64,000 nt of DNA from an uncultured Gammaproteobacteria bacterium (GCA_965231125.1 OZ246414.1:281512-345511); one strand, 5' to 3'. Shown: positions 2,451 to 62,742, counted from the stretch's first letter. The notes: generated by a model not told the origin, from the sequence alone. Numbers and translations are program-made.

Positions 2451-3221
2451 ATGGAAAATTCCAAAACTGTCATTGAAGTTGGCCACCTAGTTAAAAAATA
2501 TGATAGCGATGTTGTGGCGGTCGACGATATTTCTTTTAACGTTGCCCAAGGAGAGATTTTTGGTCTTCTAGGGCCAAACGGCGCCGGTAAAACAACTACC
2601 TTAGAAATTATCGAAACCTTGCGCCGCCCTACATCGGGAAAAGTTACCGTGGACGGTATCGATGTTCTAGAACATCCTTGGGAAGTAAAAAACCGCATCG
2701 GTGTGCAACTTCAGGCAGCCGGTTTTTATCCAGAACTTTCTTTGGTAGATTTGCTAAAAATGTTTGCTAGTCTTTACCAGATTAATATCGGGGACCCGGT
2801 AGAAATTTTAAAAAAATTCTCGCTTGAGGATAAGAAAAAAGCTTTTTGGAATCAACTCTCGGGCGGGCAGAAACAACGTTTTTCTCTAGCGACTACTTTA
2901 ATTCACAATCCAAAAATTATTTTTCTGGATGAACCAACCACTGGTTTGGATCCGCAGGCGAGAGCCAACCTTTGGGATGAGATAAAAAAGATTCATAAGG
3001 AGGGCCGCACTATTGTCCTTACTACCCACTACATGGAAGAGGCGGAGCAGCTTTGCGACGAAGTAGCCATAATGGATCAAGGGAAAATAATTAAGATTGG
3101 GCCACCAAGTGAGTTGGTTGATGAACTTCTGGAAGCTGGGTTTAAAAAGGACCAAGAAGTTAAGAGGGCCGATCTTGAGGACGTCTTTTTGGATTTGACG
3201 GGGAGGCATTTACGTGACTAA
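2451..3221 (+). CDS. ABC transporter ATP-binding protein (ABC-2 exporter type)
   Basis: Walker A GPNGAGKTTT, ABC signature LSGGQKQR, Walker B IIFLDEPT. Confidence 0.85.
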   Translation: MENSKTVIEVGHLVKKYDSDVVAVDDISFNVAQGEIFGLLGPNGAGKTTTLEIIETLRRPTSGKVTVDGIDVLEHPWEVKNRIGVQLQAAGFYPELSLVDLLKMFASLYQINIGDPVEILKKFSLEDKKKAFWNQLSGGQKQRFSLATTLIHNPKIIFLDEPTTGLDPQARANLWDEIKKIHKEGRTIVLTTHYMEEAEQLCDEVAIMDQGKIIKIGPPSELVDELLEAGFKKDQEVKRADLEDVFLDLTGRHLRD

Positions 3222-4302
3222 TGGACAGTTGAGTAAAAAGGCACCTTCTCAAGTAAGGCCACTTTTGGCAATTGCCTTTTATTCTTTTAAAGCTCTTATC
3301 CGCAACCGAGCAACAGTCTTTTTTGGAATTGCCTTTCCCCTTTTTTTTATCACGGCCTTTGGTTTGATCGGAAATAACGCTTTAAGTATTTCTATCGGAG
3401 TGCCGACTTCTGATCAAAAAGGGGCAGTTTATCAAGCGCTTTCCAGCATCCAAGTTGTAAGTATTAAATCCGGAACCAGACAAGACCTTTTGGAAAAGTT
3501 GTCCCAAGGAGGCATATCCGCTGTTTTGACTGCAGATAAAGGGCAAACGGAACTTTTTGTGTCGCAATCTAACCCGCAAAACGCAGCTGCCGCCGAGGGT
3601 TTGGTGAACGGTGTTGTCGATAAACTTAATTTGCAACTATCCGGCGTAAAAAAACCGCGAGTTGTAGTTAATTTGCGGGAGGTTTCAGGAAGAAGCTATA
3701 AATACATCGACTTTTTCTTACCTGGAATGATTGGTTTTGCGCTTTTAACTACTTCAGTTACCAGTATTGCCTTTGGCTTAATTTTTCTTAAAAAGGCCTT
3801 GGTGCTAAAGAGACTTTTTGCCACACCAATTCGTTCCTACACAATCCTGTTTGGACAAGGCCTCGCGCGGCTATTGTTCGTTCTAATCCAGACTTTAGTG
3901 ATTGTCTTTGTTGGCGTTGTCGCTTTTAAATTCACATTAATCCATGGTGCCCTCACCCTTTTCTACATACTAATTCTTAGTGTAATTGGGCTTGTCTCTT
4001 TCTTAGGTTTTGGTATTTTTGTTGCCGGAGTGGCAAACGATGAAAATACAGTGGCGCCGGTTGCGAACCTTATCGTCTTGCCGCAGTTTCTTGTTGCCGG
4101 AACATTTTTTCCGGTGGACGCGTTGCCGGCATGGTTGCAACCAGAGGTCAAAGTGCTGCCGCTAGCCTTTTTTAACACGGCGATTAGAAAAGTGACGGTC
4201 GAGGGGCTTGGGTTTGGCCATCTTTTGCCTCAACTGGCTGGTCTTGCAGTTTGGGCAATCCTGGCCTACTTTCTTGCTTCTCGCACCTTCCGTTGGGAGT
4301 GA
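3214..4302 (+). CDS. ABC-2 family transporter permease
   Basis: About six predicted transmembrane helices. Overlaps the ATPase gene by 8 nt, the usual ABC-2 operon arrangement. Confidence 0.7.
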   Translation: MTNGQLSKKAPSQVRPLLAIAFYSFKALIRNRATVFFGIAFPLFFITAFGLIGNNALSISIGVPTSDQKGAVYQALSSIQVVSIKSGTRQDLLEKLSQGGISAVLTADKGQTELFVSQSNPQNAAAAEGLVNGVVDKLNLQLSGVKKPRVVVNLREVSGRSYKYIDFFLPGMIGFALLTTSVTSIAFGLIFLKKALVLKRLFATPIRSYTILFGQGLARLLFVLIQTLVIVFVGVVAFKFTLIHGALTLFYILILSVIGLVSFLGFGIFVAGVANDENTVAPVANLIVLPQFLVAGTFFPVDALPAWLQPEVKVLPLAFFNTAIRKVTVEGLGFGHLLPQLAGLAVWAILAYFLASRTFRWE

Positions 4303-4327
4303 TCAACATCTAGAAAGAGAGGGAGGA

Positions 4328-4891
4328 TTGGAACTTCTTTACCTGATCGACAGGACGATTACGCGTCTTATCCAGTGGGTATCAAAATTCCTGGAGAGGA
4401 GACTGCACCTTACAAAAACCGTCCAATATTTTATTATGCTTGGTCTAGTTTTGGTGGTTTATACTTTAACTGGACCAATCATAGACGAAAACAAAAAGTC
4501 TTTGGCCCTCTTACCAATTTATATGAGCCTTTGGTTTGGAATACACGTTCTAGCTGCGCTCTCCGAGAGGGTATTACGACGTTTGCATCTTTTCTTTGAT
4601 GAAGACGGTTGCGTCGGAGAAAAGGAATACGGTGATGGTTATCGGGCTTGGTCTTGGATAATCATTAGCGCAGGGTACTTGTTTCTGGCCTTCAGTCGAG
4701 TTCTTGTCGGGGGTTCCTATTCAGCGCTGGGAATCGGCTATTACGGCATATTAACTCAGGCAACTGCAGAATTTGCGAGCCGTAAGGGAAGTTCCCGTCC
4801 GAAGGACAAAAGTAGGGTCACGGAGGCTCTTCGCAAACTGCTCGAAAGGTGTCGCAGTTGGCTGCCCAAACCAGTGCCGGTACCAAGTTGA
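4328..4891 (+). CDS. Hypothetical membrane protein (start uncertain)
   Basis: The ORF is open from 4208 but overlaps the permease. A TTG at 4328 follows a good ribosome-binding site (AGAGGGAGGA); the alternative start is ATG 4436. Hydrophobic helices. Confidence 0.35.
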   Translation: MELLYLIDRTITRLIQWVSKFLERRLHLTKTVQYFIMLGLVLVVYTLTGPIIDENKKSLALLPIYMSLWFGIHVLAALSERVLRRLHLFFDEDGCVGEKEYGDGYRAWSWIIISAGYLFLAFSRVLVGGSYSALGIGYYGILTQATAEFASRKGSSRPKDKSRVTEALRKLLERCRSWLPKPVPVPS

Positions 4892-4892
4892 A

Positions 4893-4928
4893 ACCAGAGT
4901 GTCTTCTTGATGCTCTGGTTCTTTTTTG
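4893..4928 (+). terminator. Rho-independent terminator
   Basis: Hairpin AACCAGAG..CTCTGGTT followed by TCTTTTTTG. Confidence 0.5.
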
Positions 4929-4964
4929 TTTGAAGCTTAAATCTTCAGGTGTTAATATAAATCT

Positions 4965-5246
4965 ATGAGTTATGAAGTTGGGAGTCGGTATCCAAAACCG
5001 GGCGATAAAGTAAAGGTTGCCCAGAAAAAGGACTATACTTCTGGGGAGTTGACAGAAGGAGTGGTTAAAGACGTTTTGACCAGTAAACGCTTTCACCCGC
5101 GCGGTCATAAAGTGCGCTTAACTAGCGGTATTATCGGCCGCGTCCAAGAATTTACAGACGGAGAGGTTGGCTCTGAACTCAACAATGCGACCGACCCTCC
5201 CGCAGTGCCAATTCCCTATAAACCAGATGAGGACGATCTAGCATAA
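4965..5246 (+). CDS. YwbE/DUF2196 family small protein
   Basis: Matches the family pattern GELTEGVVKDVLT...HPRGHKVRL..G.IGRVQ. Confidence 0.6.
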   Translation: MSYEVGSRYPKPGDKVKVAQKKDYTSGELTEGVVKDVLTSKRFHPRGHKVRLTSGIIGRVQEFTDGEVGSELNNATDPPAVPIPYKPDEDDLA

Positions 5247-29851: not shown

Positions 29852-29998
29852 CTCTGAGCTAGGTAAAAAGCCGCTTAGCGCAGATTGATAACGTCATGTC
29901 CTTAGTTCAAGATAATAGCCGTTAGGCTATTCTTGAACGCAAGACACGCAGTAGCCAATTTCTGGTAGGAAATATCAGCTACGAGTGTCTTATAGTTC

Positions 29999-30027
29999 TT
30001 GACAATTAGCTTTGTTTGTGCTATAAT
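29999..30027 (+). promoter_or_regulatory. Strong sigma70-type promoter for the DGR target gene
   Basis: TTGACA (29999-30004), a 17-nt spacer, then extended -10 TGcTATAAT (30019-30027). Start codon about 70 nt downstream, preceded by AAGGAGAGGAGGG. Confidence 0.5.
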
Positions 30028-30095
30028 CTCGAGTATCGGCAAGCGCAACTTTCCGTAAGGAAAGGAGCTTTCAAGAAAGGAGAGGAGGGACACCC

Positions 30096-30941
30096 GTGGT
30101 TATACGGACACCCCAAACTCTAATAGATCTGAGAGTCTTGGACCTGGTAGGCCCACCAATGGCAGGGCTTCCTGAAGAGGTGCTTAAGCATCATCTCAGG
30201 AATCTCGAGCCGATTCATTGGGCGATCGGAGAAGTCGCCAGAAGTATGAGACTGGGTGAAGTCGATCGCCAGCAACTCAGAATGGTCCTCCAAGGGATCA
30301 GACTGCCGGCTCCGACGATAGTTATCCCCGAAGCACAGCTTCCCGCAAACGACCCGCTCCGGCAAGTGTTCCCGACCGGCGGTTGGTACATGAAGTGCCC
30401 GCCCGGAATCGATCTGGTTCTGCTCCACCAGAGCGTCGGCCAGTTCGGGGCAGATGTGCGTTTCTACCGGCAGAACGATTCGGATCCGTGGTTTCTTAAG
30501 AGCTACGGAGAATGGTCGCCAGAGGGTAAGGGAAGTGAAGTGCAGCGGCTCACCACCCACTCGTGCCACCTCTTCATCCCAGACCCTTCGCAGTGGCTGT
30601 TCCCAGACAGCAAGGGCCTGCGTCGTGACGATTGCCTGCAGATGCAGCGCGAGTTCGAGAAGAAGTTGCCAGACGGTCGGACTTGTCCGGAACCGTCACT
30701 GGAGACTTTGGCTCTCGCGGCTTTCGAGTACCATCGGCAGCATCCGAGCCAGTGGCCACTTCGTGGCCCTAACTACGCCCGTTGCGCCAATCGCTTCGGC
30801 CGGGGTGGCTGGCTCGACGGTGGTGGCTTCGATCCGCGCGGTTTCGGCGTCAGCGGCTGGGGCGGGCTCGGCGGTGGCAATCTCGGTGCCTTGCGCTGGG
30901 TAGTGTGGTACGACGAAGAGGAGGCAGAGCAGGCCGCCTAG
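30096..30941 (+). CDS. DGR target (variable) protein; the C-terminal region carries the VR
   Basis: GTG start. Markedly GC-rich compared with the flanks. Its last ~40 codons (…GWLDGGGFDPRGFGVSGWGGLGGGNLGALRWVVW…) align to the TR with adenine-specific differences. Confidence 0.7.
   Translation: MVIRTPQTLIDLRVLDLVGPPMAGLPEEVLKHHLRNLEPIHWAIGEVARSMRLGEVDRQQLRMVLQGIRLPAPTIVIPEAQLPANDPLRQVFPTGGWYMKCPPGIDLVLLHQSVGQFGADVRFYRQNDSDPWFLKSYGEWSPEGKGSEVQRLTTHSCHLFIPDPSQWLFPDSKGLRRDDCLQMQREFEKKLPDGRTCPEPSLETLALAAFEYHRQHPSQWPLRGPNYARCANRFGRGGWLDGGGFDPRGFGVSGWGGLGGGNLGALRWVVWYDEEEAEQAA
30791..30906 (+). repeat. DGR variable region (VR)
   Basis: 116 bp, gapless alignment to the TR at 31759-31874 with 22 mismatches, all at TR adenines. 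The 3' 29 bp (CAATCTCGGTGCCTTGCGCTGGGTAGTGT) is identical and GC-rich, resembling an initiation-of-mutagenic-homing (IMH) element. Confidence 0.85.
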
Positions 30942-31016
30942 CTCTCGGACCTGGAAAACTTGGACCTTCTGGAATCTTGGTCCTTGGTTCCTTCGCCCGC
31001 AGAAAAAGATTCCAAC

Positions 31017-31066
31017 CCGACCCCGTTTCTCAAACACGTTGCGAGAAACGGGGTCTTTCTTTTCTC
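31017..31066 (+). terminator. Strong bidirectional hairpin terminator
   Basis: 13-bp perfect stem GACCCCGTTTCTC / GAGAAACGGGGTC followed by TTTCTTTTCTCTC. It lies between the convergent target and GIY-YIG genes. Confidence 0.55.
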
Positions 31067-31069
31067 TCG

Positions 31070-31366
31070 TTATTCTGGCTTGTCCAGAATCTGTCCGTAC
31101 AAATCTTTGAAATTAGGATTAAACTTCTTTATCATCTTAATCTTATCTATTCGGTTCATGTCCTTAATTTGTTTCTCTCTGATGATTGCTTGGTTAATAT
31201 TGGTAAGAATTTCAAAGTAAACTAGTTTGTACAGGTTGTATTTTGCAGTGAAACCTTTTGCAACATGGTTTTTGTGTTGCCAAACACGTTTTACTAAATT
31301 ACTAGTTACACCTGTATAAAGTGTTGGTCTATCATTGGCCATTATGTAAATATAACCAGGGTTCAT
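31070..31366 (-). CDS. GIY-YIG nuclease family protein
   Basis: Begins GYIYIM...LYTGVTSNLVKRVWQHK. A short free-standing URI domain sitting inside the DGR cassette. Confidence 0.75.
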   Translation of the reverse strand: MNPGYIYIMANDRPTLYTGVTSNLVKRVWQHKNHVAKGFTAKYNLYKLVYFEILTNINQAIIREKQIKDMNRIDKIKMIKKFNPNFKDLYGQILDKPE

Positions 31367-31512
31367 CCGGCTAATTATAAAAGATTCTGGATGCGTTCTG
31401 TGAGACAGAACTTACCAGAATGACTTGCGATGAAAAAACGTCACTCTGGCTTGACCAGAGTCTTTTTGAGAAAGATTCTCCGAGTCAGTAACACTTTTCC
31501 ATAATGACAAAG

Positions 31513-31521
31513 TGGTATAAT
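31513..31521 (+). promoter_or_regulatory. Candidate extended -10 promoter (TGgTATAAT) that could drive the TR transcript
   Basis: About 240 nt upstream of the TR on the TR strand, with no clear -35. Confidence 0.25.
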
Positions 31522-31758
31522 TCTCGTGGAGACAAGTTTAAGTATCAGCGGTCAAGGCTTCTGGTCGCTTTTCTCTCTACAATCTCCTTTAGTCCGGAAC
31601 TCTAAACGACTAAGGTCATTAGAGGTGTGATAAAGATTGCTAGACACTCCTTGCCTTTTCCTAGATCCCCCTACGCTAAAAGCTGCGGTGGGACGATAAA
31701 ATTCAATCCCTAGAAGTTTTCAAAGGATGGTGGGTGCTAGAAGGGAAAGGGCAACATT

Positions 31759-31874
31759 TCGCTACGGCCAGAGTAACTGGCTCAACGGTGGTAACTTCGA
31801 TCCGAACGGTTTCAACGTCAACAACTGGGACGAGAACGGCAATGACAATCTCGGTGCCTTGCGCTGGGTAGTGT
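31759..31874 (+). repeat. DGR template region (TR)
   Basis: Adenine-rich (28 A in 116 bp, many as AAC codons). 22 of those A positions are substituted in the VR. The ORF-track entry at 31727-31927 is an artefact of the TR. Confidence 0.85.
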
Positions 31875-31891
31875 CTAGAGGAAAAAGACGT

Positions 31892-32275
31892 CTAGGTGGT
31901 TTTGGCTTGTTTGATCCAGCCACCTAGCATCTTACCGATCTCTATTAAGAGATTCTCAAAAGAGAGATATTTTTGTTGATTGATTGCTCTAGTCTCAAAG
32001 GAGAGGCGCAATAGTATTTTTAAAACGTCCAGTTTGGCTGAGGCTCTTTCCAGGTAAACAAGTTTTTCGTTTTTACTCTTATAGCCTGCAAGTAGAACCA
32101 ATTCGAGAATTTCTAGGTTTAGGTCTGCACATTTTTGACCTACAGTGTAGCGATCTTGCCGAGGAAAATGTTTGAGAGCTTCGTGAAGGTTTTTATAAAA
32201 ATCGTAGGTCTTCTGAAATATGGGAATATCTAAATTACTTGAGTGGGGGGGGTCGAGTTGAAAACCTTTACTCAT
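31892..32275 (-). CDS. avd: DGR accessory variability determinant (Avd-like four-helix-bundle protein)
   Basis: 127 aa with the helix-pair pattern typical of four-helix-bundle proteins. Lies between the TR and the RT, on the opposite strand. Confidence 0.7.
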   Translation of the reverse strand: MSKGFQLDPPHSSNLDIPIFQKTYDFYKNLHEALKHFPRQDRYTVGQKCADLNLEILELVLLAGYKSKNEKLVYLERASAKLDVLKILLRLSFETRAINQQKYLSFENLLIEIGKMLGGWIKQAKTT

Positions 32276-33382
32276 CTTAGCTTTCTTAAGCGCCGAGCGC
32301 GTAGCGATCTATACAAGAAGGTTATCTCACTTCCCAATCTTTTTCAAGCTTGGGATGAGTTTAAGAAGGGGAAAAGAAAAAAGATTGATGTTGGAGAATT
32401 TGAGAGACATCTGGAAGACAATATTTTTGAACTGCGTCGGGAGTTGTTGACTAAAACCTACCGACACTCCTCTTACACCGGTTTTTACATTACCGATCCC
32501 AAAGTCCGCCATATCCACAAAGCGATTGTTCGCGACCGAATTGTTCACCACGCCCTATTCAAAGTTCTCAATCCCATCTTTGAACCTACTTTCATTTCTG
32601 ATTCTTTCTCTTGCCGAAAGGGATATGGAACTCATAAAGGATTTAAGAAGTTGGTTGTCTATGCCCGAAAAGTTAGCAAGAATTACACCCAAGATGGTTG
32701 GGCTTTAAAATGCGATGTAAAAAAGTTTTTTGACAGTGTTAATCATAAAGTTTTGCTAGAAATAATTAAAAGAAAGATTAAAGAAAAAGATCTGCTCTGG
32801 TTACTGGAAGAAATAGTTGGAAGTTTCTGCACTTGTCATTCTGAGGTAAAACCGAAGAATCTGAGATCCTTCGCTAATGCTCAGGATGACGATTATTGTA
32901 AAGGTATTCCCATTGGGAATCTGACTAGCCAACTCTTCGCCAACGTTTATCTTAATGAGCTAGACCAGTTTGTCAAAAACGAATTAAAGGCTAGATACTA
33001 TATCCGCTACGCTGATGATCTCCTTATCTTAATCGAAAACACAAAGGGTTTAGTCCAATATACTGGTATATTGGACAAGTTTCTTGAGGACAGGTTAAAA
33101 TTGGAACTGCATCCAAACAAAATTTCCTTGAGGAAACTGCCTTGGGGAGTCGATTTTGTTGGTTATATCGCTTTACCACATTATCAAGTTTTGAGAACCA
33201 AGACTAAAAGAAGAATTTATCGAAAGATTCGAGAAAGGATTTTTAGTTACAATGCAAAAAACATTAACTACGAATCCTTAAACCAATCCATCCAGTCTTA
33301 CTTGGGGATTTTGAAGCACGCTAATACACATAAGTTAGAACAGAATTTAAGAAATCAAATATATTTTTGGTTAACGGCTTAA
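32243..33382 (+). CDS. DGR reverse transcriptase
   Basis: RT motifs including the DGR-specific IGNLTSQLFANVYL (SQ in place of QG) and the YADD box (YIRYADDLLIL). About 375 aa with no maturase or endonuclease domain. The start is GTG 32243 or TTG 32258. Confidence 0.85.
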   Translation: MGGVELKTFTHLSFLKRRARSDLYKKVISLPNLFQAWDEFKKGKRKKIDVGEFERHLEDNIFELRRELLTKTYRHSSYTGFYITDPKVRHIHKAIVRDRIVHHALFKVLNPIFEPTFISDSFSCRKGYGTHKGFKKLVVYARKVSKNYTQDGWALKCDVKKFFDSVNHKVLLEIIKRKIKEKDLLWLLEEIVGSFCTCHSEVKPKNLRSFANAQDDDYCKGIPIGNLTSQLFANVYLNELDQFVKNELKARYYIRYADDLLILIENTKGLVQYTGILDKFLEDRLKLELHPNKISLRKLPWGVDFVGYIALPHYQVLRTKTKRRIYRKIRERIFSYNAKNINYESLNQSIQSYLGILKHANTHKLEQNLRNQIYFWLTA

Positions 33383-33428
33383 AAATATTAATTCAACCAA
33401 AGGTTAATTTTGTTATATAATAGATCAA

Positions 33429-34037
33429 GTGATAAAAGCCCTTATTTTCGATGCCGGTGGAGTTCTTTTTAATAGTGGTGAGGCCCTTTTTAAGGGCCCC
33501 GTCGAATATATTAGCCAGGTTACCAGCCAGGATTTTGTAAAAGTGGACAAGGCGTACCGGGAAACGATTGTGGAATGCGAGAGTCGGCCGATAGATAAAG
33601 AGGGGTTGTGGGATTTGTTAATGAGTAAATTGGGAAAGGATATTCCTTTTTCAGGACAAGATCCGATAGCCGATGGGTTTAAAAGATTTAGACGTTTTAA
33701 TGAAGTATTTACTCTTATTGAAAAGCTCAAACTGAATTACAAAGTTGCCGTTGTCTCGAATGCCAATGCCGTCGAGGCCTCCACACGGGAGGCGCAAGGT
33801 ATGTATAAATACTTTGATGTTGTAGTTCTGTCGTTTCAGGTAGGGGTAAGGAAACCACACCCAAAAATTTATGAGACAGCATTTGAAAAACTTGAAGCAC
33901 GTCCGGAAGAAACTGTTTTTATCGATAACGCCCCCGTAAATGTTGAAGAGGCAAAAAAGCTTGGGATGATTGGGGTTTTGTTTGTCGATGCAAGCGAGCT
34001 GGCTAAAGATTTAAATCAGGTTGGTATTAGGTTTTAA
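33429..34037 (+). CDS. HAD-superfamily hydrolase (subfamily IA-like)
   Basis: Motif I IFDAGGVL, motif II VSNA, motif III/IV K...IDN. Confidence 0.7.
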   Translation: MIKALIFDAGGVLFNSGEALFKGPVEYISQVTSQDFVKVDKAYRETIVECESRPIDKEGLWDLLMSKLGKDIPFSGQDPIADGFKRFRRFNEVFTLIEKLKLNYKVAVVSNANAVEASTREAQGMYKYFDVVVLSFQVGVRKPHPKIYETAFEKLEARPEETVFIDNAPVNVEEAKKLGMIGVLFVDASELAKDLNQVGIRF

Positions 34038-34072
34038 TTTTGATATTATGTAGTTAGTTGTTTAGTTAAACT

Positions 34073-35032
34073 ATGGAAAAAGTTTACGTAACTCGTCCCA
34101 TTCCAGAAATTGGGTTAGATCTTTTGAAAGATAGGTTTAATGTTGAAGTGAACCTAGAAGATAAAGTCCTTTCCAAAGAGGAGTTGAAGAAGGCTGTTGC
34201 TGGCGCGGATGCCATCCTTTGTCTTTTGACAGACAAAATTGATGGGGAGGTTTTAGATGCAGCCGGGCCCTCGCTTAAAATAGTCGCAAATTACGCAGTT
34301 GGCTTTGACAACATTGATTTGGGGGCCGCTAAAAGTCGAAATGTATTAGTTACAAATACCCCAGGAGTTTTAACCGAAGCAGTTGCTGAACACGCTATCA
34401 CCCTCATCCTTTCTTGTGCAAAAAGTATAGCTGCCGCCGATAGATTTGTCCGAGACGGAAAGTATACGCAGTGGGAACCCAAGGGGTTTCTCGGTCCTCA
34501 GGTTTCCGGTAAAACACTTGGCATTGTCGGTTTGGGCAGAATTGGTTCAATGGTAGCATCAATTGCCCACGCCGGTTTGAAAATGAATATTCTTTATCAC
34601 GATCTCAAAAGGAACGAAGAATTCGAAAAGGAAGTTTCTGCAAAATACGGGGAGTTAACTGAAGTTCTTAGGTCTTCCGATTTTGTTTCTATCCACGTGC
34701 CTCTCTCGCCGACAACGCACCATTTGATAAATGCAGACAACCTGTCTTTGATGAAGAAGGGAGCCGTTTTGGTTAACACTTCGCGCGGGGCGGTTATCGA
34801 TGAAAAAGCTTTGGTTGATCATCTAAAGAATAAACAGATTTGGGCTGCGGGTCTTGATGTTTTTGAAAATGAACCGGCTCTTACCCCAGGACTTACCGAG
34901 CTACCAAATGTTATTCTCACACCTCATACTGCGAGCGCCACTTTTGAAGCTCGAGACGCGATGAGCAAGGTGGCCGCAGAAAATATTATCGCCGCTCTTT
35001 CCGGGAAAACTCCAGCAAATTTAGCCGAATGA
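34073..35032 (+). CDS. D-isomer-specific 2-hydroxyacid dehydrogenase (glyoxylate/hydroxypyruvate reductase-like)
   Basis: NAD-binding GIVGLGRIGSMVA, and catalytic R/E/H (NTSRG...TPH). Confidence 0.85.
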   Translation: MEKVYVTRPIPEIGLDLLKDRFNVEVNLEDKVLSKEELKKAVAGADAILCLLTDKIDGEVLDAAGPSLKIVANYAVGFDNIDLGAAKSRNVLVTNTPGVLTEAVAEHAITLILSCAKSIAAADRFVRDGKYTQWEPKGFLGPQVSGKTLGIVGLGRIGSMVASIAHAGLKMNILYHDLKRNEEFEKEVSAKYGELTEVLRSSDFVSIHVPLSPTTHHLINADNLSLMKKGAVLVNTSRGAVIDEKALVDHLKNKQIWAAGLDVFENEPALTPGLTELPNVILTPHTASATFEARDAMSKVAAENIIAALSGKTPANLAE

Positions 35033-62595: not shown

Positions 62596-62742
62596 AGGTC
62601 AAAGGAATACGGGTGAAGCACGGTGTAAATCCGTGGGAGTGCCGCTACTGTAAACCCAGAACCCCGCCTTTGAATCCCTTCGAGCAAAGGAGGTGAAAAA
62701 TCACTTAGGATTTAAACCAGCCAACTTTGCGGCTGGTTTTTT
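62596..62742 (+). ncRNA. Cobalamin riboswitch-like leader (assigned from memory, not verified) with a terminator expression platform
   Basis: GGTGAAGCACGGTGTAAATCCGTG...GCCGCTACTGTAAACC resembles the cobalamin-riboswitch core as I recall it. It is followed by the hairpin CCAGCC..GGCTGG plus T6 (62717-62742), directly upstream of the DUF4430 gene. Confidence 0.5.

Follow-up and report, generated by a model that had tools for sequence, protein, structure and literature searches.

A region that very probably holds a complete chromosomal diversity-generating retroelement of the common CPR type, with a rare, GC-rich target gene

Results

Our analysis of a 64,000-nt stretch of DNA (hereafter, the window) located what is very probably a complete diversity-generating retroelement (DGR), chromosomal and of the kind typical of CPR/Patescibacteria. 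In this type, named B3, a target gene and a template repeat (TR) are accompanied by an avd gene on the opposite strand and by a reverse transcriptase (RT). DGRs of this kind have already been catalogued in large numbers in the ultra-small (CPR) bacteria (PMC5758913, PMC8144416), and the "TR-(avd)-RT" architecture of B3 accounts for 90% of CPR DGRs (Wu et al. 2018, PMC5758913). The parts in the window follow the B3 order, with the TR at 31759-31874 on the plus strand, avd at 31892-32275 on the minus strand and the RT at 32258-33382 on the plus strand. Rewriting of the variable repeat (VR), specific to adenines, has occurred in this element in the past; for its activity today we see about even odds.

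Variable and template repeats

The two repeats and the block shared by their 3′ ends carry most of this identification.

30791..30906, plus strand: VR, 116 nt, at the 3′ end of the ORF 30096-30941, with 22 differences from the TR
31759..31874, plus strand: TR, 116 nt, with 28 A, 10 AAY codons and 17 mutable codons
30878..30906, plus strand: IMH-like block, 29 adenine-free nt that also form the 3′ end of the TR (31846-31874)

A repeat finder returned the VR and TR as a single 116-nt gapless pair with 81% identity, and base-by-base comparison found an A in the TR at each of the 22 mismatches, which hit 22 of the 28 TR adenines (P=1.4e-18, hypergeometric, for 22/22 mismatches on A). None of the 88 non-A positions of the TR differed in the VR. 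Alignment thus reproduced exactly the coordinates, the gapless 116-bp pairing and the adenine-only mismatches put forward in an earlier note on this DNA. The substitutions comprised 18 A>G, 2 A>T and 2 A>C (82% A>G), and in the frame of the ORF 30096-30941 they fell on codon position 1 (9) or position 2 (13), never on position 3. The TR can encode ~1e16 possible proteins, and not one of its 17 mutable codons is convertible to a stop codon. Differences confined to TR adenines, a VR at the 3′ end of a gene and an AAY-codon TR that offers no route to a stop, all of them features by which membership of the DGRs is judged, are therefore found together in this pair.

The same pattern was found outside the window. 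The related loci L001, L003/L004 and L008 have the same layout and the adenine-only pattern with 19, 18 and 14 mismatches, respectively. Among CPR DGRs further removed, eight have a VR to which 60-nt pieces taken from the TR region correspond with 7-12 mismatches, every one of them at an adenine. An ordinary duplication that has drifted next to an unrelated RT would explain the existence of a direct repeat, and nothing more. The base-by-base comparison refutes it, because drift would have to place every difference on the A of one copy and spare both the third codon position and all other bases, and because the adenine-only pattern recurs in independent relatives; we give this reading practically no credence. 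The VR/TR pattern is instead proof of mutagenic retrohoming, although of past retrohoming only.

The last 29 bp of the VR and TR were identical, as the earlier note had stated in comparing them with an IMH element. This block occurs twice in the window and nowhere else in it (0 occurrences expected by chance), and the flanks of the VR and TR diverge beyond it; in relatives, the block common to both repeats stops 7 nt earlier, at ...GCGCTGG. A GC-rich 7-10-bp hairpin with a GRNA loop, known for phage DGRs (PMC3240598), was not found within 34 bp of the VR. When the whole window was searched with the TR pattern in which every A had been changed to N, only two copies matched, the VR and the TR themselves, which leaves a single VR in the 64,000 nt.

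Reverse transcriptase and Avd

Two protein genes follow the TR, and their 5′ ends overlap.

31892..32275, minus strand: avd accessory gene, 127 aa
32258..33382, plus strand: DGR RT, 374 aa when read from TTG 32258; the ORF opens at GTG 32243
32835..32890, plus strand: in-frame hairpin insertion in the RT, in the loop before IGNLTSQ, with a fold energy of -24.6 kcal/mol

The accessory protein of DGRs, Avd, was recognised by Pfam bAvd PF22296 (5.8e-20, 72.2 bits; cutoff 40), by the NCBIfam equivalog model NF033474 DivGenRetAVD (92.9 bits; cutoff 80) and, in PHROGs, by PHROG 3206, "Avd protein of DGR". The Avd-like identity proposed earlier for 31892-32275 therefore held above the cutoffs of both Pfam and NCBIfam, with the strand corrected to minus.

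The RT contains YADD and IGNLTSQ, the latter fitting the DGR signature [I/V/L]GxxxSQ (PMC7826257). Its identity and both motifs had been called correctly, and only the start needed revision, from GTG 32243 to, most likely, TTG 32258. The best solved relative was the Bordetella bRT (8ub7, 1e-37), with the best-scoring group II intron RT at 8e-25, and PHROG 1423 was matched at 7e-111; these motifs and best matches (PDB, PHROG) place the enzyme in the DGR clade by sequence similarity. An RT of group II intron, retron or defence origin is hardly conceivable, even though the NCBIfam group II model gave 142.8 bits, several DRT and retron models gave 18-61 bits and generic RT models of PADLOC matched. 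Those scores lie far under the curated cutoffs (300 for group II, 200-450 for the others), bRT leads by 13 orders of magnitude in E-value, and the signature motif, a DGR-specific Avd adjoining the RT and a TR/VR pair are all present. The RT family check that the earlier note had called for thus ended with bRT as the nearest enzyme and with scores far under the NCBIfam group II and retron cutoffs.

The hairpin insertion, one of two lineage-specific insertions in the window RT, is missing from 9 related RTs, and a different insertion occupies the same loop in L003. The ORFs of RT, Avd and target are all intact. Relatives of the RT at 48-65% identity all come from MAGs, most of them named as CPR/Patescibacteria lineages. 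Among 18 related loci, 15 have avd on the opposite strand, likewise in the order TR, avd, RT; the loci L003/L004 were first suspected of being without avd, which was ruled out by tblastn, the gene being intact.

RNA elements around the template repeat

The following elements are predicted for the transcript that would carry the TR.

31513..31521, plus strand: putative promoter of the TR transcript, extended -10, TGGTATAAT, read from sequence
31528..31588, plus strand: conserved leader of the TR transcript, with a hairpin (31547-31569) and then a T-run
31589..31762, plus strand: structured RNA domain ending at the TR start, a relative of Rfam RT-16
31640..31648, plus strand: 5′ strand of a TR-bracketing duplex, CUAGACACU, perfectly complementary to 31870-31878
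31870..31878, plus strand: 3′ strand of the same duplex, AGUGUCUAG, in 9-bp pairing with 31640-31648
31892..31927, plus strand: stem-loop just after the TR, CUAGGUGG...CCACCUAG, antisense to the avd stop and C-terminal codons

In L001, L003 and L008 a -10-like box is found at the corresponding position, just downstream of which strong conservation starts. Rfam returned nothing in the cassette at gathering thresholds. Full-length sub-threshold matches to RT-16 (RF03019) scored 22 bits in the window and 37, 34 and 27.6 bits in L003, L010 and L022, all under the gathering threshold of 50 bits, by which neither the window nor the three relatives belong to this family. At all four loci, however, the match covered the full model on the correct strand and ended at the TR start, and the conserved motifs CUACAC, AUAAAAUnCA and GGUG are shared with RT-16. 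Position, strand and common motifs point to distant homology, and we therefore call the domain a relative of RT-16 and not a member; RT-16 was given no function in its source paper (Weinberg et al. 2017, PMC5737381).

With our own RNA model, R1, the structured domain was also found immediately upstream of the TR in 8 additional DGRs. Of the cells in the alignment, 94.3% were paired, compensatory changes were present in 21/31 pairs and the covariation score reached 0.76, compared with 0.11-0.18 when the partners were slid. Helix 2 of the model was not relied on, since its support was weak (83.6% paired, a single compensatory pair) and since it competes with the long-range duplex. The partner strand of that duplex co-varies in L027, L015, L020 and L010, where 12-bp duplexes were reached by 0/300 shuffles; the score of the window duplex was reached by 6/300. 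The stem after the TR is preserved through compensatory changes in the folds of the window, L001, L003, L008 and L028, and its position is the one where Handa et al. put the Avd-binding stem-loop. Covariation thus supports both a TR-bracketing duplex and a stem-loop behind the TR, as expected of a DGR, and the RNA elements correspond to classes that have been described in Bordetella and predicted for DGRs of the CPR.

A further insertion separates the target gene from the TR.

31066..31463, minus strand: passenger insertion with a GIY-YIG nuclease ORF at 31070-31366 (Pfam GIY-YIG 2.3e-12)

At either end it carries a copy of a 25-nt hairpin repeat (31068-31092 and 31439-31463), and it is absent from L001, L003 and L008, of which L003 has a single copy of the hairpin. 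The passenger is not part of the DGR mechanism.

Target gene and its flanks

The target ORF has the coordinates claimed for it earlier and lies between the following elements.

29999..30027, plus strand: target-gene promoter, TTGACA, 17-nt spacer and TATAAT, with TG before the -10 box; 12/12 consensus positions
30096..30941, plus strand: target (variable-protein) gene, 281 aa, a ~75-aa N-terminal helical part and then a modelled C-type-lectin/FGE-like domain
30947..30988, plus strand: conserved element downstream of the stop codon, made up of tandem octamers of CTTGG type and a 5-bp inverted repeat
31019..31064, plus strand: target-gene terminator of the intrinsic kind, with a 13-bp stem and then a T-run, read from sequence

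In 7/7 loci of the target family the -10 box is invariant and the 5′UTR conserved, with conservation ending upstream of the -35 box. Single-sequence and profile searches of Pfam, NCBIfam, PHROGs, PADLOC and PDB sequences returned no match to the target protein, which is small and has no domain recognisable in libraries, no membrane signal and no secretion signal. Its family is rare, with ~10 clusters in 5.8 billion proteins, and a scan of viral contigs yielded no relatives. The full-length structural model was poor (pLDDT 55.7) and the usable model is of the domain only; its best structural match was TvpA, the DGR variable protein of Treponema denticola (PDB 2y3c). The CLec/FGE-like fold anticipated for the C-terminus was seen in this domain model, according to which the target carries a C-type-lectin/FGE fold that presents the VR, a C-type-lectin or Ig fold being characteristic of DGR targets.

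The inverted repeat of the element after the stop codon consists of GGACC (30962-30966) and GGTCC (30979-30983), and the element lies 41-82 nt downstream of the VR. It is near-invariant in all VR-bearing members of the family, including targets without a nearby RT, and is missing after the homologue that has no VR; the inverted repeat shows one compensatory change, in L003. These observations suggest a candidate target-recognition element. The stem of the terminator is preserved in relatives despite differing sequences.

Composition of the target gene

The target gene has a GC3 of 0.67 in a genome of 0.40. All VR-bearing family members have a GC3 of 0.61-0.76 with genomes at ~0.40 and a mutual identity of only ~50%; the avd, RT and RNA beside the target are host-like in composition, and L033, the sole family homologue without a VR, has a GC3 of 0.39. 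A second, unrelated CPR target family showed the same GC enrichment. Avoidance of adenine on the sense strand was rejected as the explanation since A3 and T3 are depleted equally, and the idea that all CPR DGR targets are GC-rich was also rejected, since the targets of L012, L015, L020, L021, L022 and L024 are not enriched. That the status of DGR target imposes or requires a GC-rich composition over the whole gene is, in our estimate, improbable. If this were true, the composition would be maintained by something tied to retrohoming, for which biased conversion, a requirement for stable R-loops or duplexes, and repeated gene replacement would be candidates; to our knowledge, none of them has been described for DGRs.

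Present-day activity

The earlier note had inferred mutagenic retrohoming with ongoing hypervariation. The VR/TR pattern bears out the past part, and the word "ongoing" goes beyond the evidence, as the available cross-sample sequences show no change in the VR. The alternative, that the DGR is quiescent or recently silenced, so that a VR rewritten in the past is now rewritten rarely or never and is effectively a fixed allele, has in our view nearly an even chance of being right. It agrees with the unchanged target protein in a separate record (P0008, a 915-kb contig), with a Logan assembly of run SRR6155503 that is identical to window positions 29926-34941, and with the identity of L001 and L029, from two samples, over 5.6 kb. 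In four sister clusters at 90% identity, whose members were drawn from JGI, ENA and Logan, 5/5 variant sequences differed by single substitutions outside the VR and none inside it, and cluster members, identical-protein look-ups and the metagenome scan together gave no VR variant among 5 loci, all in assemblies. The TR of L003 has a T where the VR of L003 and the TR of L004 have C, a change unmatched in the VR that indicates no homing since that mutation. Activity in the CPR clade is below average according to Roux et al. (PMC8144416), and the two insertions in the RT may point in the same direction.

Several points weigh against quiescence. Minority variants are lost from sight in consensus assemblies, the compared samples may be near-replicates of one population, and activity can be masked by strong purifying selection. 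Every ORF and RNA element is intact, and the lack of any non-A difference between VR and TR indicates that the last homing event was not ancient.

Discussion

The element shares its part order and strands with the CPR DGRs of type B3 (PMC5758913), or DGR clade 2 (Roux et al. 2021, PMC8144416). Those elements are also chromosomal, their targets are likewise small and without a recognisable domain or membrane signal, and in their "X" variants an unrelated ORF is nested between target and TR, as in the window. The window element differs from them in a target family that is rare and outside all domain libraries, and in a target gene that is strongly GC-rich relative to its genome.

With the DGR of Bordetella phage BPP-1 (mtd-avd-TR-brt) it has in common the adenine-specific transfer from TR to VR, the pairing of Avd with an RT whose closest solved structure is bRT, a TR designed on AAY codons, a target of (modelled) C-type-lectin fold with a C-terminal VR, and, as predicted, a duplex bracketing the TR with a stem-loop after it. 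In contrast to BPP-1, the window element is cellular and not phage-borne, it has its large structured RNA domain on the 5′ side of the TR rather than in a spacer on the 3′ side, its VR is not followed by a GC-rich GRNA hairpin, and the 3′ blocks of VR and TR are identical where BPP-1 has IMH versus IMH*; its substitution spectrum is A>G-biased compared with Bordetella bRT. TvpA, which has an FGE-type C-type-lectin fold, shares 11% sequence identity with the target and has a different N-terminal region; unlike TvpA, the window target has no lipoprotein signal, and there is no HRDC accessory gene.

In the mechanism that we propose, a transcript would start near 31528 and consist of the structured 5′ domain, the 116-nt TR and the 3′ stem-loop, with the duplex 31640-31648/31870-31878 bracketing the TR. 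The RT and Avd would copy the TR into cDNA with wrong bases opposite adenines, and this cDNA would replace the VR at the 3′ end of the gene 30096-30941, guided by the common adenine-free 3′ block and perhaps also by the element after the stop codon. The outcome would be the recoding of 17 codons on the ligand-binding face of the C-type-lectin-fold domain. From the Bordetella model we infer the sequence of events, the priming step and the part that the 3′ element plays in targeting.

As one more of ~30,000 catalogued DGRs, and in the lineage where DGRs are commonest, the window element changes little on its own. It does give the orphan motif RT-16 of Rfam a place, immediately 5′ of the TR, and the RT-16 relative together with the TR-bracketing duplex offers a testable RNA scaffold for B3, where avd sits in the position taken by the spacer in Bordetella. 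That the target is GC-rich and the VR-less homologue is not forms a regularity that still calls for an explanation. Finally, a rare target family, C-type-lectin-like and without a secretion signal, bears on what CPR bacteria diversify, and why.

Adenine-restricted differences between the repeats

A repeat finder recovered a single 116-nt gapless pair, exactly where the earlier note had placed the variable repeat (VR, 30791-30906) and the template repeat (TR, 31759-31874) of a diversity-generating retroelement (DGR). Base-by-base comparison bore out its central claim: all 22 mismatches fell on A residues of the TR (22 of its 28; hypergeometric P = 1.4e-18), and 0 of the 88 non-A positions was changed. 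The terminal 29 nt were identical, as the note had observed, and occurred only at these two sites; a search of the window with the TR pattern, every A masked, detected no third copy. In the frame of the target gene (ORF 30096-30941, +), nine mismatches were at codon position 1, 13 at position 2 and none at position 3. The mutable codons of the TR, 10 AAY and 7 containing a single adenine, can reach ~1e16 proteins and no stop codon. Across the target family, scaffold residues of the VR were invariant and the AAY-templated positions differed. The public annotation calls a gene for a 66-aa protein over the TR region (31727-31927) and misses avd, and one protein record (P0022) is the translated TR of a close relative.

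At the 22 changed adenines the VR has G 18 times, T twice and C twice. The 82% share of A>G deviated from equal thirds (P = 4e-6); of the 17 mutable codons in the VR, 10 are now glycine codons. In contrast, the Bordetella DGR reverse transcriptase (bRT) prefers A>T, with A>G second and A>C last. Pooled over the family, VR changes at TR adenines were 46 G, 15 C and 12 T; the spectrum of L003, a sister locus, differed from that of the window (Fisher P = 0.003).

Avd and reverse transcriptase

Two elements of the cassette were delimited by homology or conservation:

31892-32275, minus strand: avd; Pfam bAvd (5.8e-20), NCBIfam equivalog for DGR Avd, PHROG 'Avd of DGR'
30947-30988: CTTGG-type octamers with a GGACC/GGTCC inverted repeat, nearly invariant in all VR-bearing relatives

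The avd product scored 92.9 bits against the NCBIfam DGR Avd equivalog model (cutoff 80), which, with the Pfam and PHROG matches, supported the Avd-like gene proposed earlier. The top solved relative of the reverse transcriptase (RT; ORF ending at 33382, +) was bRT (8ub7, 1e-37), followed by group II intron RTs (8e-25); every score against the NCBIfam group II, retron and DRT models was far under cutoff, and PADLOC returned generic RT matches only. The RT carries the IGNLTSQ and YADD motifs, the former agreeing with the DGR signature [I/V/L]GxxxSQ (PMC7826257). The assignment to the DGR-type RTs thus held and, together with the adenine-only differences and the Avd score, the interpretation of the cassette as a DGR is supported.

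Comparison with nine related RTs and an independent gene call placed the RT start most likely at TTG 32258, which gives RT and avd a head-to-head overlap of 18 nt. The antisense strand of avd lies inside the presumed TR-to-RT transcript, which may place an extra constraint on avd. Two in-frame insertions in the RT were absent from the nine relatives: 11 extra residues near the N-terminus (32276-32308) and a 56-nt hairpin (GTCATTCTGAG...CTCAGGATGAC; 32835-32890) in the loop preceding IGNLTSQ, where the L003 RT has another insertion of different sequence. Identity between the window and L003 (avd at 3174-3530) was 92% for Avd, 69% for RT and 49% for the target.

Structured RNA around the TR

When the window was aligned with three sister loci, conservation of the non-coding stretch from ~31528 to the TR exceeded that of the proteins. 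The Rfam RNA RT-16 (RF03019) matched along its whole length in the correct orientation, ending at the TR start, with 22 bits in the window and 37, 34 and 28 bits in the related loci L003, L010 and L022, all under threshold. Weinberg et al. (PMC5737381) assigned no function to RT-16, with the speculation that DGRs account for some of the RT motifs. Searched with a covariance model derived from four close sequences, eight more distantly related DGRs gave a match at the corresponding position; in all of them (8/8) a TR lay between the RNA match and avd, with a matching VR and adenine-only differences. In the resulting alignment, which was fitted to the model and is therefore biased toward the structure, 94.3% of cells were paired, 21 of 31 pairs showed compensatory changes, and the covariation score was 0.76, vs 0.11-0.18 with slid partners.

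The TR is also bracketed by a putative duplex between CUAGACACU (31640-31648) and AGUGUCUAG (31870-31878), the latter directly 3' of the TR. In four related loci (L027, L015, L020 and L010) both strands had changed and a 12-bp pairing was found at the same place, with a score matched by 0/300 shuffles; the score in the window was matched by 6/300. On the 3' side, a stem-loop at 31892-31927, its 3' half antisense to the C-terminal codons of Avd, was retained by compensatory changes in five sister loci. The same classes of RNA element were predicted for CPR DGRs by Handa et al.

The 3' end of the VR and the downstream element

In the sister elements, identity between VR and TR stops at ...GCGCTGG, after which the VR reads GCAGTGCG and the TR TAGTGTCT. 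The window VR has the TR-like GTAGTGT, so its shared block is 7 nt longer. This sequence would fit a conversion tract that once extended further, and would equally be produced by two C>T point changes.

Phage BPP-1 requires a GC-rich GRNA-loop hairpin (PMC3240598). No hairpin of this kind was found within 34 bp of the VR in the window, which has the octamer block in its stead. The block also follows three targets with no nearby RT and is absent downstream of the homologue without a VR, making it a candidate for a role in targeting.

The target gene and its composition

The 281-aa target protein matched no domain library, and inspection of its sequence revealed no signal peptide or membrane segment. 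A set of 5.8 billion proteins yielded only 7-9 clusters of relatives, and one of 1.84 billion cluster representatives yielded 8. The full-length structure model was poor; residues 75-281 alone gave pLDDT 72.3 and pTM 0.77. The promoter agreed with the consensus in 12/12 positions, plus TG, the 5'UTR was conserved among the family loci, and the terminator stem was retained in relatives.

The gene is unusually GC-rich (GC 0.60, GC3 0.67), the 49 other long ORFs of the window having a GC3 of 0.40 +/- 0.05 (maximum 0.52). All VR-bearing relatives (L001, L003, L005, L007, L008, L028, L034) had a GC3 of 0.61-0.76 at locus GC of 0.37-0.43, despite protein identities of only ~50%, and the composition of avd, RT and RNA was host-like. 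The homologue in L033, the only one without a VR and with known context, was not enriched (GC3 0.39). Another target family in related DGRs was also GC-enriched; further families were not. Adenine avoidance was ruled out as the cause, since A3 and T3 were depleted to the same extent. Within the gene, GC3 climbs toward the VR.

Lineage and genomic setting

The window is part of a 116-kb JGI contig (Ga0136847_10637249), is identical over 5 kb to an independent Logan assembly (run SRR6155503), and shares its target protein with a 915-kb NCBI contig. In species-representative genomes, the 18 RTs most similar to that of the window were 48-65% identical, all in MAGs mostly named as CPR (Woykebacteria, Levybacteria, Curtissbacteria, Beckwithbacteria, Saccharibacteria, Paceibacterota), and avd was opposite in strand to RT in 15 of these 18 loci.

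Past the terminator of the target gene and ahead of the TR promoter, ~371 nt within 31066-31463 form a lineage-specific insertion that resembles a small mobile element. It contains a minus-strand GIY-YIG nuclease ORF (98 aa), and a copy of a 25-nt hairpin repeat bounds it on either side; L003 has one hairpin copy and no GIY-YIG ORF. Unrelated ORFs nested between DGR parts were reported by Wu et al. (PMC5758913). Across relatives, the cassette or a lone target gene occupies unrelated sites: between rplJ and rplA (L003/L004, 1288-4624), between two Fpg paralogues (L007, 4136-6936), beside ABC-transporter genes (L005, target alone), or ahead of a remnant leader and a transposase of the IS200 type, at a locus lacking avd and RT (L034, target at 4166-5036). 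Elsewhere, an AdoCbl-II (cobalamin) riboswitch was detected at 62599-62673 (+; 39.3 bits, above the Rfam gathering threshold), and a LOOT RNA (RF03000, 83 bits) at 7601-7722 of L025, ~1.5 kb downstream of a related DGR.

Present-day activity and place among known DGRs

That every non-A base is common to VR and TR speaks against an ancient date for the last homing event. The 'ongoing hypervariation' proposed in the earlier note was unsupported by the assemblies: among relatives grouped into four clusters at 90% identity, five variants (JGI, ENA, Logan) differed by one residue each, all outside the VR and none within it, and loci L001 and L029 from two samples were identical. L003 and L004 differed at 38 sites in 7.8 kb, within the cassette only by a 6-nt indel at the avd/RT junction and one TR base, at which the VR agrees with the L004 version. 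Because these are consensus sequences from possibly related samples, minority VR variants could be hidden; current activity is not established.

The order of TR, opposite-strand avd and RT is the B3 architecture, TR-(avd)-RT, of 90% of CPR DGRs (Wu et al., PMC5758913), and CPR DGRs were reported to fall in a cellular clade, with targets lacking recognisable domains and activity below average (Roux et al., PMC8144416). Taken together, the layout and these published traits make the cassette typical of its lineage; it belongs to an already well-known type of DGR, and its significance is modest.
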